64,000 nucleotides of DNA, from the sequence record PZ445447.1; one strand, written 5' to 3'. This document shows positions 57,252 through 61,555 of the stretch, piece by piece; the stretch's first letter is position 1, and each line of letters opens with the position of its first letter. Below the pieces are notes generated by a model. That model was not told where the DNA came from and searched no databases. It worked only from the letters and a program-made list of their open reading frames with translations. A program made the position numbers and the translations under genes. Source of the stretch: a phage.

Positions 57252-57806
57252 ATGAAATACTTTGTAACAAGCGACACACACTTTCTCCACCAGCGGGTCA
57301 TGGAGTTTGACTCATGTCAAAAACACAGATCTCAGTATGATCACAATCTTGACAGTATGAATGCGGGGATCATCACCAAGTGGAACTCTGTTGTGTCACC
57401 TGCAGACACTGTGTTTCACTTAGGAGATATTGCGTGCACTAATGATAAGAATATTAACAAATTGCTCCCAGATGTTCTAAATATGTTGAACGGACATATT
57501 ATTCTTGTTCGTGGTAACCATGACACAAGGACGACTGTCAGAATTATGAAAGAGTTCGGTCATGAGGTTGTAGATTATTACGAGCTTCGCCACAACAAGA
57601 ATTTGATCTGTATGAGCCATTACCAGTTTGCAAAGTGGAACAGAAAGCCTCACGGATCAGTCCAACTGTTCGGTCATGCTCACGGAACCACACAACAGTT
57701 GTTTGGCAGACAGTTTGATGTCGGTTGGGATGTGTGGGGGAGACTCTTACCATTAGAAGAGGCATACCGTATTGCAATGAGTTTTGCTATTGACAGCGGG
57801 GAGTAA
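57252..57806 (+). CDS. calcineurin-like metallophosphoesterase
   Basis: metallophosphatase motifs SDTHF, GDIA, GNHD, GHAH; 8 nt after the kinase gene. Confidence 0.7.
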   Translation: MKYFVTSDTHFLHQRVMEFDSCQKHRSQYDHNLDSMNAGIITKWNSVVSPADTVFHLGDIACTNDKNINKLLPDVLNMLNGHIILVRGNHDTRTTVRIMKEFGHEVVDYYELRHNKNLICMSHYQFAKWNRKPHGSVQLFGHAHGTTQQLFGRQFDVGWDVWGRLLPLEEAYRIAMSFAIDSGE

Positions 57807-57853
57807 TCCCTGCTATTTTAAAGAAAATTGCCACACAAGGAGAATCAGGAGAT

Positions 57854-58204
57854 ATGAAAGATGGGGATAAGCTGCTATATCTTAAAGTCCCCCTTGAAAT
57901 ACTATCTATGTCAAAAGTTTTGAATGACACAACTGGGGAGGTTGTTGTTCTTGACTTGTATGACAAGATCGTATACTGCTACCTGCACAACTGGTATAAG
58001 CTTGGAGGAAGTTCACGCTTCACACCCAGCACAAGGAAAATTGCAGCAGATGTTGGAATAAAGAAAACAAAAGCAGCAGCGTGCGTTAAAACTTTAGAAT
58101 GTGCGGGAGTGGTTGAAATATCCACACAAGGGAGAGGTAAAAGATGCACATTTTCCAAAGTTTTGCCACCAGAAGAAGTTATTCGAATGTCAACAACTGG
58201 TTAG
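57854..58204 (+). CDS. putative helix-turn-helix DNA-binding protein
   Basis: HTH-like RKIAADVGIKKTKAAACVKTLECAGVVEI; followed by the palindromic repeat array. Confidence 0.5.
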   Translation: MKDGDKLLYLKVPLEILSMSKVLNDTTGEVVVLDLYDKIVYCYLHNWYKLGGSSRFTPSTRKIAADVGIKKTKAAACVKTLECAGVVEISTQGRGKRCTFSKVLPPEEVIRMSTTG

Positions 58205-58276
58205 ACCAGTAAAAACTTAAATATCTGTACTATAAGGATTCGTATGTTTTATGTTCGCTCTGGAACAGAGGTTAGT

Positions 58277-58361
58277 AACTGTCCGTGATACGGACACTAC
58301 TGTCCGTCACGCGGACACATCTGCCCGTAATACGGACACTAACTGTCCGTGATACGGACAC
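58277..58361. repeat. four tandem 21-bp palindromic repeats
   Basis: units taactgtccgtgatacggacac / tactgtccgtcacgcggacac / atctgcccgtaatacggacac / taactgtccgtgatacggacac, each with inverted half-sites gtccg...cggac. Confidence 0.65.
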
Positions 58362-58489
58362 ATAAAGAATATAACTAAAATAACTAAATAATAAAAAATA
58401 AAAGATCTAGTACTTATGGTACTAAGTACATATACTTAACTTATGTAGAATATACTAGATCCTAAGTACCATGTTTTAAATTTATTACT

Positions 58490-58760
58490 TACTATGGGCA
58501 GTGTCGGCCCTTCATTGGCACTCGCCTACGAGGGGCGAGATGCCGGGCCTCCTTGGTGTACACAATAACAGAAGTGCATACATGCAGGTCTGTTAACATG
58601 TGTGGGAGCGAAGCGATAGCGCAGGCCAAAGGCCGAGCACTGATGTGGACCACCGACGAAAGCTTGCCAGCGCCGTAAGGAGTCGGTTGAGAGTCTCCCG
58701 CGCGAGCTTGGATGAAGTTTATGTGTGGAAACTGACAAGAAGGTCCCTAAATCGCTCCAC
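58490..58760. other. GC-rich structured non-coding island (candidate ncRNA)
   Basis: GC content well above flanks, several local inverted repeats, no credible ORF. Confidence 0.3.
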
Positions 58761-58864
58761 AGCCATATAAACTATACCAAGTAAGGCAATCGCACCAGTT
58801 TGATAGAAAAGCTCGTTACAAAGCGATACAGTGAGTTTTTCTATAACTTGAAGAGGAGGCAGCT

Positions 58865-59443
58865 ATGAGTCCACGCAAAGATGACCGTGAAAAGATTGCA
58901 AAACGTTATCAGAATGAAGAACAGATGGAGAAAACTTTCAAGTGGAAGCCAGGTTTCCAGCGTAATCATTCTAACGCTCGTGATCGTAAGCATCCGGATA
59001 AGTGGTTAACACCGCCAAATGATGGCATGCAGGTTGGGGATGAGAAGGAGCTGTCACCTGGAAAAGATGGCAACTACATTCGCACTAAGGAAGCAGGTCC
59101 AAAGGATGACAGCTATCTTGTAGATAAGGTTCTTGATGGTATTGATGTAGATGTTGACACTGCACGAAACCTTTTTCTTGGTTGGTATCGTACAGGGTTT
59201 TTCGACATCAAGGCTATTCGTCGTGTTTGTGATATTAAAAAGTCTGCATATGATGATGACTCTCTACATCGCACTCTGAGACAATACTCAGAGAGATACG
59301 GTCATCCAGTTATCACTCTTGACGATATTAACGAAGTGATGTATCATGCAGAGGTTGTTGCAGGTAGATTCGGTGATGCATATCTCGGTATTCTTTCTGC
59401 AAAAGATGAGGTAATGTTAAATAAAATTTACTATGAACGCTGA
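58865..59443 (+). CDS. hypothetical protein
   Basis: 192 aa; gaagaggaggcagct RBS. Confidence 0.55.
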   Translation: MSPRKDDREKIAKRYQNEEQMEKTFKWKPGFQRNHSNARDRKHPDKWLTPPNDGMQVGDEKELSPGKDGNYIRTKEAGPKDDSYLVDKVLDGIDVDVDTARNLFLGWYRTGFFDIKAIRRVCDIKKSAYDDDSLHRTLRQYSERYGHPVITLDDINEVMYHAEVVAGRFGDAYLGILSAKDEVMLNKIYYER

Positions 59444-59453
59444 GGAGCGCTTA

Positions 59454-59642
59454 ATGAACAACCCGGTAGCAAAGAACTGTAATAAGTTCAACAAGTCTGC
59501 AATTCACACTGACAGGAAAAAGAGCTGGTCTCCTGACATTGACGAGGAGCTTGAGAGTTACTTTGAAGACCTGGTCACTAATGCAGATGAGGTTGCGATT
59601 AAAGAATACGCAGACAGGAAGGATAAGGCCGGAATCTGTTGA
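59454..59642 (+). CDS. hypothetical protein
   Basis: ATG 59454 after GAGGAG RBS. Confidence 0.4.
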   Translation: MNNPVAKNCNKFNKSAIHTDRKKSWSPDIDEELESYFEDLVTNADEVAIKEYADRKDKAGIC

Positions 59643-59718
59643 CAAAAATAGTGTTACCTGATAAGATCTGCAATATGATGTGATGCAATTTTAACTTACG
59701 AGGTCTACAGGTAATGCT

Positions 59719-59961
59719 ATGTTTAAGGTTAAGCTCGTTTTTCGTTCCATGAATGAGGATTATTTAGAAGATGAAGGTGAATTTCGTGCACTGGATGATG
59801 CAATAGATTTTGCCAACGACTTAGCTTGTATGAATACAGGTTATGGGCTATGTTGTTGGGATGGTGGTGTTCAGATCGGTGATAGCAAGATCTTCTACTT
59901 CTACCCTGAGCCTGATAACAAACAAATTAAGTATGTTTTATTTATTTGTGCTTTACAATGA
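59719..59961 (+). CDS. hypothetical protein
   Basis: 80 aa; cgaggtctacaggtaatgct upstream; promoter-like TTGACA at 59640. Confidence 0.5.
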   Translation: MFKVKLVFRSMNEDYLEDEGEFRALDDAIDFANDLACMNTGYGLCCWDGGVQIGDSKIFYFYPEPDNKQIKYVLFICALQ

Positions 59962-60039
59962 GGTTGTTTTCGTGTATCATGATGAATATCCAATTTAAAG
60001 ATGAATTTGATGGCTTTATCTCTGGATGCTTTGAAACAG

Positions 60040-60250
60040 GGTTCGGAGAAGACTGAGTTCCCCTTAGAGGGCTTGATAGTGCACCACACTTAAAATGGTA
60101 GGGGCAGCCAGCACATGACGATGTGACCCCAGCCAACCTGTAACAAGGTCGAGCCGAAGCGCGGGTAATAGGCCTCTGGTAACCCACTTGTTGGGTCTTG
60201 CTGGCCCAGGACGCTGGACAAGTCGCAGGGAATACCACCCTGCGGCGAAC
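60040..60250. other. GC-rich structured non-coding island (candidate ncRNA)
   Basis: GC-rich with multiple inverted repeats between two plus-strand genes; the only ORF here is a low-complexity antisense one. Confidence 0.3.
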
Positions 60251-60279
60251 TTGACAATCAGTATTTGCTATGATAAAAT
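60251..60279 (+). promoter_or_regulatory. sigma70-type promoter
   Basis: TTGACA (60251) - 17 nt - TAAAAT. Confidence 0.5.
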
Positions 60280-60307
60280 CCACCTATCACGTGATAATGG
60301 AGGAAAC

Positions 60308-60646
60308 ATGGCGGATACAACTAAAAAGCGTCGCCGTAGAGGCAGACCTCTGAAAGAGGAGTCCAACGCCATTCAGCTAGAGAAGAACATCCTTGATATG
60401 AAGGAATCTTTTATAGCGATGGTTCCAGAAGCTCACAAAGTTTTAAGAGAGCTGATGTTGGACCCGAAAACCAAACAAAATATTCGTCAAAGCATTGCAG
60501 AGTATGTTCTTGATAAGGCAGACCGAATGCAGGAAGAATATGATGAGATGTTTGGTGAAGAGGAAGAGGTGGTAGTGGAAGAGGCTGAAAAACCAGCACC
60601 TTTTATGCCATTTACTACAGAAATACAGCCTGTTAGCAATAGCTAA
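60308..60646 (+). CDS. hypothetical protein with basic AT-hook-like N-terminus
   Basis: ATG 60308 after ggaggaaac RBS; KKRRRRGRPLKE then acidic C-terminus. Confidence 0.5.
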   Translation: MADTTKKRRRRGRPLKEESNAIQLEKNILDMKESFIAMVPEAHKVLRELMLDPKTKQNIRQSIAEYVLDKADRMQEEYDEMFGEEEEVVVEEAEKPAPFMPFTTEIQPVSNS

Positions 60647-60655
60647 AATATTTTC

Positions 60656-60684
60656 TTGACAAACTTTGCTTAACAGTGTAATAT
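60656..60684 (+). promoter_or_regulatory. sigma70-type promoter upstream of tRNA cluster
   Basis: TTGACA (60656) - 17 nt - TAATAT (60679). Confidence 0.55.
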
Positions 60685-60742
60685 TGTAAACATGGTCTCC
60701 CACCTTTTCTGGCGGCTAAGGTGTAAAAGAAAGCCACCCAGT

Positions 60743-60817
60743 GCCCTGTTAGCTTAGTGGATAAAGCAGCGGCCTTCTAAGCCGTTGACACTGGTTCGAG
60801 TCCAGTACGGGGTGCCA
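60743..60817 (+). tRNA. tRNA-Arg (anticodon TCT)
   Basis: manual cloverleaf: acceptor gccctgt/acggggt, D-stem gctt/aagc, anticodon loop cttctaa, T-arm actgg-ttcgagt-ccagt, encoded CCA. Confidence 0.8.
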
Positions 60818-60821
60818 AATT

Positions 60822-60908
60822 GGGGAGTTATCCCGTAGAGGTAGCGGTGTAGACTGTAAATCTATTGTCATTGCGACTCGGGTGGTTCGACTCCACCACT
60901 CCCCACCA
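60822..60908 (+). tRNA. tRNA-Tyr (anticodon GTA), type II
   Basis: acceptor ggggagt/actcccc, anticodon loop ctgtaaa, long variable arm, T-arm ggtgg-ttcgact-ccacc, encoded CCA. Confidence 0.75.
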
Positions 60909-61022
60909 AATTTATATTTTTAGATGCATAAATAATACAGATAATGGCATTGATATTTATCGTCGTTTATACTAGTCACTAACTGCTCGAAAATCAGTGT
61001 CATTATCAGTATAATTTATAAA

Positions 61023-61113
61023 GGAGGGTAGGGAGCAATGGTGCTCAAGCGGTCTTGAAAACCGTCCCGTTGAGGATGACTCGATGATGGTTCGATTCCA
61101 TTACTCTCCGCCA
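61023..61113 (+). tRNA. tRNA-Ser (anticodon TGA), type II
   Basis: acceptor ggagggt/actctcc, anticodon arm gcggt-cttgaaa-accgt, long variable arm, T-loop ttcgatt, encoded CCA. Confidence 0.75.
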
Positions 61114-61211
61114 CATTGTTGACCTTGTAATTAAGCGAAAGCCGGAAGCAGAACCGGATTATCAAATGTTACAGTCGTCATCGCCGACTAGCAACATGGT
61201 CAACATACTGA

Positions 61212-61310
61212 GCTAGGTAAGCCCTTTGGCAAGGGCGAGGATTTTTAATCCTGAAAATAGACGAGGTAGTCGTTGAATACATAGGTGGTTCGATTCCATC
61301 ACCTAGCACC
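61212..61310 (+). tRNA. atypical tRNA-like gene (anticodon ambiguous, TTT if 7-nt loop)
   Basis: acceptor gctaggt/acctagc, D-arm gccc-tttggcaa-gggc and T-arm ggtgg-ttcgatt-ccatc are canonical, but anticodon stem is imperfect and 29 nt lie between anticodon arm and T-arm; 99 nt total. Confidence 0.4.
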
Positions 61311-61315
61311 TTTTT

Positions 61316-61391
61316 GCTGATGTAGCACAATCGGTAGTGCAATTGATTTGTAATCAATAGGTTGTAGGTTCAAGTCCTGCCATCAGCACCA
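61316..61391 (+). tRNA. tRNA-Thr (anticodon TGT)
   Basis: acceptor gctgatg/catcagc, D-stem gcac/gtgc, anticodon arm attga-tttgtaa-tcaat, T-loop ttcaagt, encoded CCA. Confidence 0.8.
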
Positions 61392-61392
61392 A

Positions 61393-61467
61393 GGCCCTGT
61401 AGCTGGAAGGTTCAAGCAAGCGACTCATAATCGCCAGACGGTGGTTCAATTCCACCCAGGGCCACCA
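61393..61467 (+). tRNA. tRNA with CAT anticodon (Met or lysidine-type Ile)
   Basis: acceptor ggccctg/cagggcc, anticodon loop ctcataa, T-arm ggtgg-ttcaatt-ccacc, encoded CCA; 3-bp D-stem and A.C at top of anticodon stem. Confidence 0.65.
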
Positions 61468-61478
61468 AATAGTAAATA

Positions 61479-61555
61479 CTCCGCGTAGCTCAGCTTGGTA
61501 GAGCGCCTGATTTGGGATCAGGAGGTCGAGTGTTCGAATCACTCCGTGGAGACCA
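61479..61555 (+). tRNA. tRNA-Pro (anticodon TGG)
   Basis: acceptor ctccgcg/cgtggag, D-arm gctc-agcttggta-gagc, anticodon arm cctga-tttggga-tcagg, T-loop ttcgaat, encoded CCA. Confidence 0.8.

Follow-up and report, generated by a model that had tools for sequence, protein, structure and literature searches.

The transfer RNA (tRNA) clusters of phages are now regarded as a means of countering host defences that target tRNAs, and they also house enigmatic structured RNAs such as ROOL, GOLLD and the T4 species 1 and 2. The latter two are small stable RNAs encoded by rnaC and rnaD, with which the T4 tRNA cluster ends. ROOL and GOLLD are large, ornate RNAs of phages and prophages, often situated near tRNA islands, and are supported by covariation; many GOLLD RNAs are longer than 800 nt, and both families form multimeric cages (PMC12286853). 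Here we report on two GC-rich islands in a phage genome (sequence record PZ445447.1), of which a stretch of 64,000 nucleotides, called the window in the following, was analysed. Both islands are intergenic and lie on the plus strand upstream of the tRNA cluster, just where the sequence-only reading, a previous inspection of this DNA without database searches, had placed them. We could confirm that both are real, non-coding and evolutionarily conserved folded nucleic-acid elements. Island 2 contains a three-way-junction motif that is, as judged from sequence comparison, a new family within a known kind, the small structured phage RNAs beside tRNA genes. Island 1 contains a core whose sharing between phages and plasmids appears to be undescribed.

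The motif of island 2 occupies the same niche as T4 rnaC and rnaD. Indeed, in the records L114, L077, L092 and others (L numbers designate individual records) we find it as a short structured element on the same strand as the tRNA genes and directly beside them. Homology to rnaC or rnaD was nevertheless not found. Even with filters off, the covariance model R1, which describes the motif, did not exceed 10.1 bits anywhere in the T4 tRNA region, compared with 69.4 bits at the leader of vs.8. The BLAST matches in T4 are confined to the denV-vs.8 interval, and the T4 copy of the motif lies upstream of vs.8, about 6 kb away from rnaC and rnaD. With ROOL and GOLLD, which represent the closest known kind, the motif shares the association with tRNA islands, but it is only a 48-nt junction in a unit of about 100-200 nt, and neither of the two Rfam models matches it. 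What makes the family unusual is its broad distribution and the fact that it was concealed in an annotated T4 gene.

The scan for known RNA families that the sequence-only reading had proposed as a check was carried out, and neither island matches. With Rfam 15 (4227 models, gathering threshold) only tRNAs pass in the window, and at E<=10 over 58200-60700 nothing was found inside the structured core of either island. The sole weak match, rli43, reaches 22.9 bits against a threshold of 100; it covers the iterons and the AT-rich tract but no more than the first ~85 nt of island 1. The other motif loci and a plasmid gave nothing relevant either, although the models include tmRNA, RNase P, 6S, ROOL, GOLLD, ribozymes, riboswitches and group I/II introns, so that the ideas of an intron remnant or of a known ribozyme find no support. 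Neither ARAGORN nor the Rfam tRNA model called a tRNA in either island or at the motif in other loci. We found no intrinsic terminator in either island and no terminator-like site on the plus strand within 57700-61100. The iterons and AT-rich repeats were all that Tandem Repeats Finder reported; neither island contains a tandem array of the ToxI type. Finally, full-text literature searches gave no description of a T4 vs.8 leader RNA, of the tRNA-cluster motif, of capsid-encoding plasmid satellites or of the exact core sequences.

The 2.1 kb around both islands are 100% identical to Escherichia phage MaxBurger (BASEL Bas54), and about 120 Vequintavirus (rV5-like) records match the same 2.1 kb with 90-99% identity. 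Because of these matches the source phage must be regarded as rV5-like and not as T4-type. The two islands themselves were correctly recognised as GC-rich. Their GC contents of 0.559 (island 1, 58500-58760) and 0.573 (island 2, 60040-60250) are both more than three standard deviations above the window mean of 0.425 (standard deviation 0.039 in 200-nt windows). Just 0.39% of the 200-nt windows have a GC content of 0.54 or above, and tRNA genes are among the other top-GC windows. The predicted fold of island 1 has an energy of -106.1 kcal/mol, which corresponds to z = -3.4 relative to dinucleotide shuffles, and none of 200 shuffles equalled it. The claimed density of structure consequently holds for island 1 already in a single-sequence fold, while in island 2 it becomes visible solely through comparison with relatives. 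Both islands share a GCC..GCGC..GUAA..GG string, but we rejected the idea that they are paralogues, given that R1 misses island 1 and that the two architectures differ.

The statement that the islands hold no credible open reading frames (ORFs) was borne out. For the two small plus-strand ORFs of island 1 (31-56 amino acids), the variable sites are distributed as 3/6/4 and 9/8/9 over the three codon positions, hence without an excess at the third position. Both are disrupted in L013, the most divergent relative, and no Shine-Dalgarno sequence precedes either of them. In island 2, indels of 1 and 2 nt occur even among close relatives, and no reading frame is kept. When T4 is compared with rV5, a 1-nt indel in the motif region puts the two sequences out of frame, yet the flanking nucleotides are conserved on either side of it, showing that the conservation is at the nucleotide level.

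The three-way junction is formed by the closing stem P2 and the hairpins P3 and P4 (Table 1), and its invariant nucleotides are those of the P3 loop and of the junction strands C-N-A and GGUAA. In a seed set of 26 sequences, standard pairs are present in 85% of the cells. The covariation score is 0.285; shuffles give 0.093, none of 500 reaching the observed value, and slid registers do not exceed 0.078. Next to P3, the adjoining pair occurs as A-U, C-G, U-A and U-G. From this seed we built R1. It detects the motif once in the window, misses island 1 and the plasmids, and picks up 39 more instances in newly fetched loci. For a second covariation set we took 35 distinct new sequences from outside those used to derive the structure. 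Here 92% of the cells pair, the covariation score is 0.46 versus 0.12 for shuffles (again 0 of 500), and three to five pair types are seen at each P2 pair. The second pair of P4, which is absent from R1, also varies in a compensatory manner (C-G 22, U-A 9, G-C 2). Slid registers stay 4-10 times below the observed score. Additionally, RNAalifold recovered P2, P3 and P4 independently from the rV5-like sequences, with compensatory changes in 15 of the 44 predicted pairs. Compensatory pairing beyond the controls is what one would generally ask of a structured RNA, and the motif qualifies as one, as does the P stem of island 1, there with few independent events. The proposed analysis of structure and covariation across related phages therefore yields conserved pairing with compensatory changes, and this result is strong for the motif of island 2.

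The rV5 element also extends beyond the junction. The 5' domain is invariant from the rV5-likes to the distant L117, L121 and L122. A further helix P1 can be read by eye, and in L121 its equivalent would be GGAAC/GUUCC around CUACG-GACG-CGUAG. The RNAalifold consensus contains no P1; there, part of the CCCC strand is paired with GGU 3' of the junction. As this pairing shows compensatory changes too, P1 stays a candidate. None of the three 3' hairpins (60182-60243) is followed by a U-tract. In the T-even phages, an AAAGN/N'CUUU helix around the motif covaries; a long-range helix UCUGAGUG/CAUUCGGA was discarded because it is lost in L026 and CF1. Mimicry of an anticodon loop was also considered for the P3 sequence CUGUAAN, which is identical to positions 32-38 of E. 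coli tRNA-Tyr. In that register the flanks cannot form an anticodon stem, and the covarying stem yields a hexaloop, so this idea was dropped. Folding island 2 or the L114 unit as a single sequence proved uninformative.

A sensitive BLAST search with island 2 gave 119 full-length rV5-like matches, and about 466 T4-like records that match just 43 nt (60125-60172) with 86-88% identity. In the T4-likes, the motif is always situated in the 150-190 nt interval directly upstream of vs.8. Pattern scans of IMG/VR detected the motif core in 46-kb contigs, in one 75-kb contig, as a tandem pair in one T4-like phage and in dozens more contigs of 4 kb to 360 kb. The matches of R1 include T4-likes, rV5-likes and 46-kb, ~90-kb and 360-kb (jumbo) contigs. 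A host origin was considered and rejected, since none of 5,426 complete E. coli genomes contains a match to island 2. An attempt to reach distant relatives through the neighbouring 192-amino-acid ORF failed, because this ORF is confined to Vequintavirus. The fetched loci with tRNA genes number 22, and all of them carry the motif on the strand of the tRNAs; the distance to a tRNA gene is 38-570 nt in 20 of these loci. In the window, the cluster starts 567 nt 3' of the motif. The position of the motif relative to the tRNAs is variable: the rV5-likes, the 46-kb phages, L094 and L123 have it upstream of the cluster, L084, L095, L099, L108, L110 and the 360-kb L077 have it between tRNAs, and in L089, L092 and L114 it follows the last tRNA. 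In L114, an operon of ten tRNAs closes with the motif, which lies 38 nt 3' of tRNA-Ser and ahead of an intrinsic terminator. The flanking protein genes differ from locus to locus (endolysin, HNH endonucleases, terminase, capsid-like genes). A fixed place ahead of one gene, as expected for a cis-acting leader, is hence seen only with vs.8 in the T4-likes. Because the position relative to the tRNAs varies, the neighbours are unrelated and ORF74 has its own promoter, an independent small RNA gene fits better than a dedicated cis-regulator. The family is physically associated with phage tRNA clusters. The suggested analogy to small RNAs beside tRNA genes consequently fits the motif of island 2 and fails for island 1, which is not a tRNA-cluster element but origin-proximal and of very narrow distribution.

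Several observations concern individual lineages. The T4 reference NC_000866 annotates vs.8 as a protein of 219 amino acids that spans the motif (L073 2357-2403; ~64.86-64.90 kb, minus strand), and in other T-evens vs.8 starts at MRTFL, about 110 nt downstream of the T4-annotated start. This comparison indicates that the T4 start codon is probably mis-annotated and that the motif has been read as the N-terminus of Vs.8. In the rV5 group we see two alleles of the motif core, one of which is identical to that of T4 in 43 of 44 nt (L019 Aya and L016 versus L003 T4; window 60125-60172). Such a near-identical allele suggests an exchange between co-infecting T4-like and rV5-like phages. Two copies are present in some phages (L022 714-760, L038 5093-5250, L098 830-961, L100 9021-9179); in L038, L098 and L100 they are in tandem, and in Klebsiella phage K65 they are ~500 nt apart between internal-protein genes. 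The 46-kb phages (L029 5104-5960, minus strand; L033, L040, L045, L101) possess an untranslated leader of ~850 nt that reaches from a consensus promoter to the tRNA cluster. It comprises several long hairpins with the conserved bases CACAACAGGUAA...UUUCCGUUGUG and one three-way-junction unit closed by GUUGUGAC/GUCACAAC.

Island 1 has a different setting. It is located directly 3' of a winged helix-turn-helix (wHTH) gene, four iterons and an AT-rich palindrome. The wHTH protein belongs to PHROG 12838 'replication initiation protein' (E = 8.5e-80) and shows weak Pfam matches to HTH_36 and DUF6945. The AT-rich tract is diverged in sequence in L013, with its AT-richness kept. Repeats at 21-22 bp spacing, an AT-rich tract and an initiator-like gene are the attributes of an iteron-type origin, and we consider 58276-58490 a candidate Vequintavirus replication origin. 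Apart from generic repeat_region features in some records, this segment appears to be unannotated.

Within island 1, the hairpin domain D1 displays two compensatory G-C to U-A changes in the plasmid NZ_CP020521. The variable hairpin D2 shows a compensatory A-U to C-G change in L013, and rV5 and Pr121LW lack 18 nt (58563-58580), a loss that removes its 5' half. The P stem of the core is 100% paired, and three of its six pairs differ in a compensatory way between the phage and the plasmid lineages; a G-U pair at the stem end occurs in two phages. The tetraloop varies from GUAA to GGAA and remains GNRA. Two ribozyme assignments were examined. With about 68 nt, a loop that can pair with the 3' tail and a nested pseudoknot topology, the core resembles the hepatitis delta virus (HDV) ribozymes, and HDV-like threading is topologically possible. 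Unlike in these ribozymes, however, the pair at the stem base is A-U, G-U or G-C instead of a fixed G-U, there is no P4, and the pseudoknot pairs are invariant and so do not covary. A hammerhead reading of CUGAUG...GAAA was rejected since CUGA is not conserved in the plasmids.

Outside Vequintavirus, relatives of island 1 were found just in circular E. coli plasmids of 13-15 kb and in matching metagenome contigs. Among the 5,426 complete E. coli genomes it matches four small plasmids and nothing else, a scan of GTDB genomes gave only chance coding matches, and a scan of IMG/VR and metagenomes returned only rV5-likes and 13-15 kb contigs. No sequence similarity to plasmids outside this 13-15 kb family was seen. 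The plasmids (L005/L007 NZ_CP020521, L006, L014, L015, L059, L064) encode major capsid, baseplate and tape measure proteins as well as a Rep-like wHTH protein with weak PHROG matches to replication initiators; a terminase is not annotated. Their capsid protein is ~22% identical to those of ~140-150 kb myoviruses, and their promoters (TTGACA-17-TAAGAT/TAAAAT) are of the phage type. Each plasmid has ~2.9 kb of non-coding sequence with lineage-specific iterons, and the core is again directly 3' of the iterons and of an initiator-like gene. The wHTH protein of the phage showed no similarity to the Rep-like protein of the plasmids. The plasmids look like an undescribed extrachromosomal satellite family of Vequintavirus. 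One record of the family is a threefold concatemer (39.6 kb). The non-coding region (L005 1000-1320, with equivalents in L059, L064, L014 and L015) contains a modular array of small hairpin clusters, several of which consist of three hairpins closed by a short stem and have UUCG, UAC or GNRA loops. UGUGUGGG stands directly ahead of every cluster, and the set of modules varies by plasmid. The same heptamer also precedes domain D3 of island 1 in the window (58600); as a DnaA box, UGUGUGGG would be a poor match.

We favour, as a moderately probable reading, that both islands are structured non-coding RNA domains on sigma-70-driven early Vequintavirus transcripts, which belong to two unrelated families and act in the ways proposed here. 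We are much more confident that the elements are real and structured than that these functions are correct. Conservation, lack of coding, base-pair covariation, distribution, genomic setting and absence from Rfam are what the data show; transcription, processing, partners and function are what we infer. The three-way-junction motif would be an independent RNA gene module that is kept in or beside phage tRNA operons and does not serve as a cis-regulator of one gene. It would be co-transcribed with the tRNAs or next to them and then be released or stabilised as a small RNA of ~80-200 nt. With the invariant loop and junction surface it would finally, as the most likely course, act in trans by binding a protein or RNA partner tied to tRNA or RNA metabolism. 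Island 1 would be a separate structured RNA with a pseudoknot-capable core, within a transcript that extends from the wHTH gene through the iterons and the AT-rich tract. In this position it would most probably function as an origin-associated RNA that is recognised by a Vequintavirus factor and, for example, primes or controls replication. The satellite-like plasmids would have copied the core, most probably in order to use a Vequintavirus replication factor or another helper factor. ColE1 RNA II and the R-loop primers of T4 oriF/oriG are known origin transcripts or primer RNAs, and island 1, as a structured RNA candidate across an origin-like module, is similar to them. Sharing between satellite and helper recalls the cos sites of P4 and P2; here the core is the sole sequence common to a large lytic phage and capsid-encoding episomes. 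Pseudo-ToxI RNA mimicry is known from phage phiTE, an rV5-like phage. The core is different from it in that it is no tandem repeat and has no evident toxin partner. A more far-reaching joint version is possible but doubtful: the junction would be an undescribed, widespread small phage RNA that accompanies tRNA clusters through unrelated lineages and acts in trans on the tRNA- or RNA-processing machinery of host or phage. It might, for instance, inhibit an RNase or a tRNA-targeting defence, or serve as a decoy for it. Independently of this, the core of island 1 would be an RNA 'password' that Vequintavirus shares with a new family of plasmid satellites, and with which these would take over a replication or packaging factor of the helper.

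A number of points weigh against the RNA interpretation. The only pointers to transcription of the islands are promoter-like sites and gene orientation, and for island 1 no promoter is found directly upstream, the nearest being at 57790. The minus strand of island 1 folds nearly as well as the plus strand (z = -3.1), and the covariation of this island is essentially one split between phages and plasmids plus a few wobble changes. Island 2 folds no better than shuffled sequences when taken alone (z = -0.65). The partner of the junction motif is purely putative, and its fixed position in the vs.8 leader is compatible with a cis-regulatory role in the T4-like lineage. Given the few independent events, the minus-strand fold and the missing adjoining promoter, a folded single-stranded DNA origin element, a protein-bound inverted repeat or a packaging site is a serious rival for island 1. 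We regard it as unlikely, though worth weighing, that the core is such a DNA site, either a hairpin of a single-strand initiation or primosome-type origin or the pac site of the Vequintavirus terminase. As the one sequence that the phages share with plasmids devoid of an annotated terminase, the core would suit this role, since satellite-like plasmids would need an origin hairpin or a pac site to be replicated or packaged by a helper. In phages and plasmids alike it adjoins iterons and an AT-rich tract. However, the retention of a GNRA loop, together with the C(UUCG)G and GNRA caps in the plasmid arrays, favours RNA over DNA, as these motifs stabilise the former and not the latter. The plus strand also accommodates a G-U wobble at the stem end, and the region is part of a plus-strand early transcription unit without a terminator. 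For a pac site the location would also be unusual: known pac sites are mostly in or beside terminase genes, and the large terminase gene is more than 4 kb away from island 1, past the tRNAs and spanins.

For the junction motif, the alternative is a cis-acting leader, that is a riboswitch-like aptamer or a processive antitermination signal (put-/boxB-like) that would shield tRNA operons or early operons with long untranslated stretches from Rho, or control the gene downstream. The invariant unpaired nucleotides do resemble a binding pocket, every T4-like phage has the motif in the vs.8 leader, and in the rV5-like and 46-kb phages it is upstream of the tRNA clusters. P3, with its U-A-closed, GNRA-like loop, is also reminiscent of boxB. 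A leader is nevertheless difficult to reconcile with L114, L092, L089 and L077, where the motif is downstream of tRNAs and in L114 directly before a terminator. It is equally at odds with the strong promoter between motif and ORF74, with downstream genes that are unrelated across loci and with the second K65 copy between internal-protein genes. We accordingly rate the leader as distinctly improbable, even less likely than the DNA site. Still far less credible is that the islands encode proteins, by small or antisense ORFs, or are functionless GC-rich remnants of horizontal acquisition. It is true that MaxBurger and rV5 annotate the small ORFs in island 1, that all three indels of island 1 within Vequintavirus are multiples of three and that the T4 reference counts the motif to Vs.8. 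The codon-position spread, the ORFs broken in L013 and lacking a Shine-Dalgarno sequence, and the indels in island 2 and between T4 and rV5 all speak against coding, and compensatory base-pair changes would be unexpected for a coding sequence as well as for junk.

The interpretation as structured RNAs has several consequences. A compact motif that extends from T4-likes to jumbo phages offers a handle on roles of the tRNA locus beyond tRNA supply. As it is present in T4 and in phages of the BASEL collection, it is tractable by deletion, mutation and pull-down in standard E. coli systems. For T4, the comparison of the motif loci brings a correction to how vs.8 is annotated. Island 1, for its part, directs attention to an unmapped Vequintavirus origin module and to a possible new family of capsid-encoding satellites, for which the shared structured element is the likely point of molecular parasitism.

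Table 1. Features in and around the two islands (positions in the window).
Feature	Position	Strand	Remarks
RNA ligase gene, then polynucleotide kinase and phosphoesterase genes		minus (RNA ligase)	precede the promoter at 57790
Sigma-70 early promoter	57790-57819	+	TTGACA-18-TATTTT, extended -10 TG; nearest one upstream of island 1
wHTH gene	57854-58204	+	product named transcriptional regulator or replication initiation protein in records
Gap of 660 nt 3' of the wHTH gene, then ORF77 and ORF76		+	gap holds island 1
Four iterons	58276-58361	strandless	21-22 bp each, palindrome TGTCCGTnnnACGGACA
AT-rich tract	58362-58490		long imperfect palindrome 58392-58487; resembles a DNA unwinding element
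Island 1	58500-58770	+	in all 119 Vequintavirus records, 88-100% identity
Island 1, domain D1	58506-58549	+	GGCCC...GGGCC around hairpin GGCACUCGCC/GGCGAGaUGCC
Island 1, variable hairpin D2	58567-58594	+	
Island 1, core	58643-58710	+	68 nt; sole part common to all 13-15 kb plasmids
Core, P stem	58652-58657 with 58682-58687		6 bp
Core, loop			GAAAGCUUGCCAGCGCCGNAAGGA; invariant, 24 nt; contains GNRA hairpin 58673-58680
Core, tail			GAGAGUCUCCCGCGCG; possible loop-tail pairings GCGC:GCGC and GGAG:CUCC
Promoter of ORF75	59639-59667	+	consensus early promoter
ORF75	59719-59961	+	gene before island 2
Island 2	60040-60250	+	multi-hairpin structured element
Island 2, 5' domain	60058-60103	+	CCCUUAGAGGGCUUGAUAGUGCACCACACUUAAAAUGGUAGG; invariant from rV5-likes to L117/L121/L122
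Candidate helix P1	60101-60130	+	GGGG/CCCC around CACAU-GACG-AUGUG
Three-way-junction core motif	60129-60176	+	48 nt; R1 57.3 bits, E = 4.5e-15
P2	60132-60135 with 60169-60173		closes the junction; one bulge
P3	60136-60149		hairpin ACCUGUAACAAGGU; family form ACCUGUAANAAGGU, ACCU-GUAANA-AGGU
J3/4			CGA in the window; C-N-A invariant across the family
P4	60153-60162		short hairpin G-N-N...N-N-C
J4/2			G-GGUAA in the window; GGUAA invariant in the family
3' hairpin ACCCA/UGGGU	60182-60196	+	
3' hairpin GCCCAG-GACG-CUGGAC	60204-60219	+	compensatory C-G to U-A in FV3
3' hairpin GCAGGG/CCCUGC	60225-60243	+	
Promoter of ORF74	60251-60279	+	consensus, TTGACA-17-TAAAAT; between island 2 and ORF74
Promoter	60656	+	between ORF74 and the tRNA genes
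tRNA cluster	60743-61555	+	seven genes: Arg, Tyr, Ser, one odd tRNA, Thr, Met, Pro

With the gene order given in Table 1, the ORF75 transcript would include island 2 as its 3' untranslated part. Near-consensus sigma-70 promoters with an extended -10 element (57790, 59639, 60251, 60656) head almost every small gene cassette of the early region, with no intrinsic terminators in between; the equivalent of the 57790 promoter is carried as P76 in the annotation of the rV5 record. Within the tRNA cluster, the odd gene at 61212-61310 (~97-99 nt) is read by ARAGORN with a 4-base anticodon (atcc). It has an Rfam tRNA score of just 35.5 bits and is annotated as tRNA-Lys or tRNA-OTHER in the relatives. 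Finally, 18 GenBank records of the MG0656xx series bear the label 'Campylobacter phage'. Over the region they show 98-99% identity to E. coli Vequintavirus, and they are probably mislabelled or contaminants.

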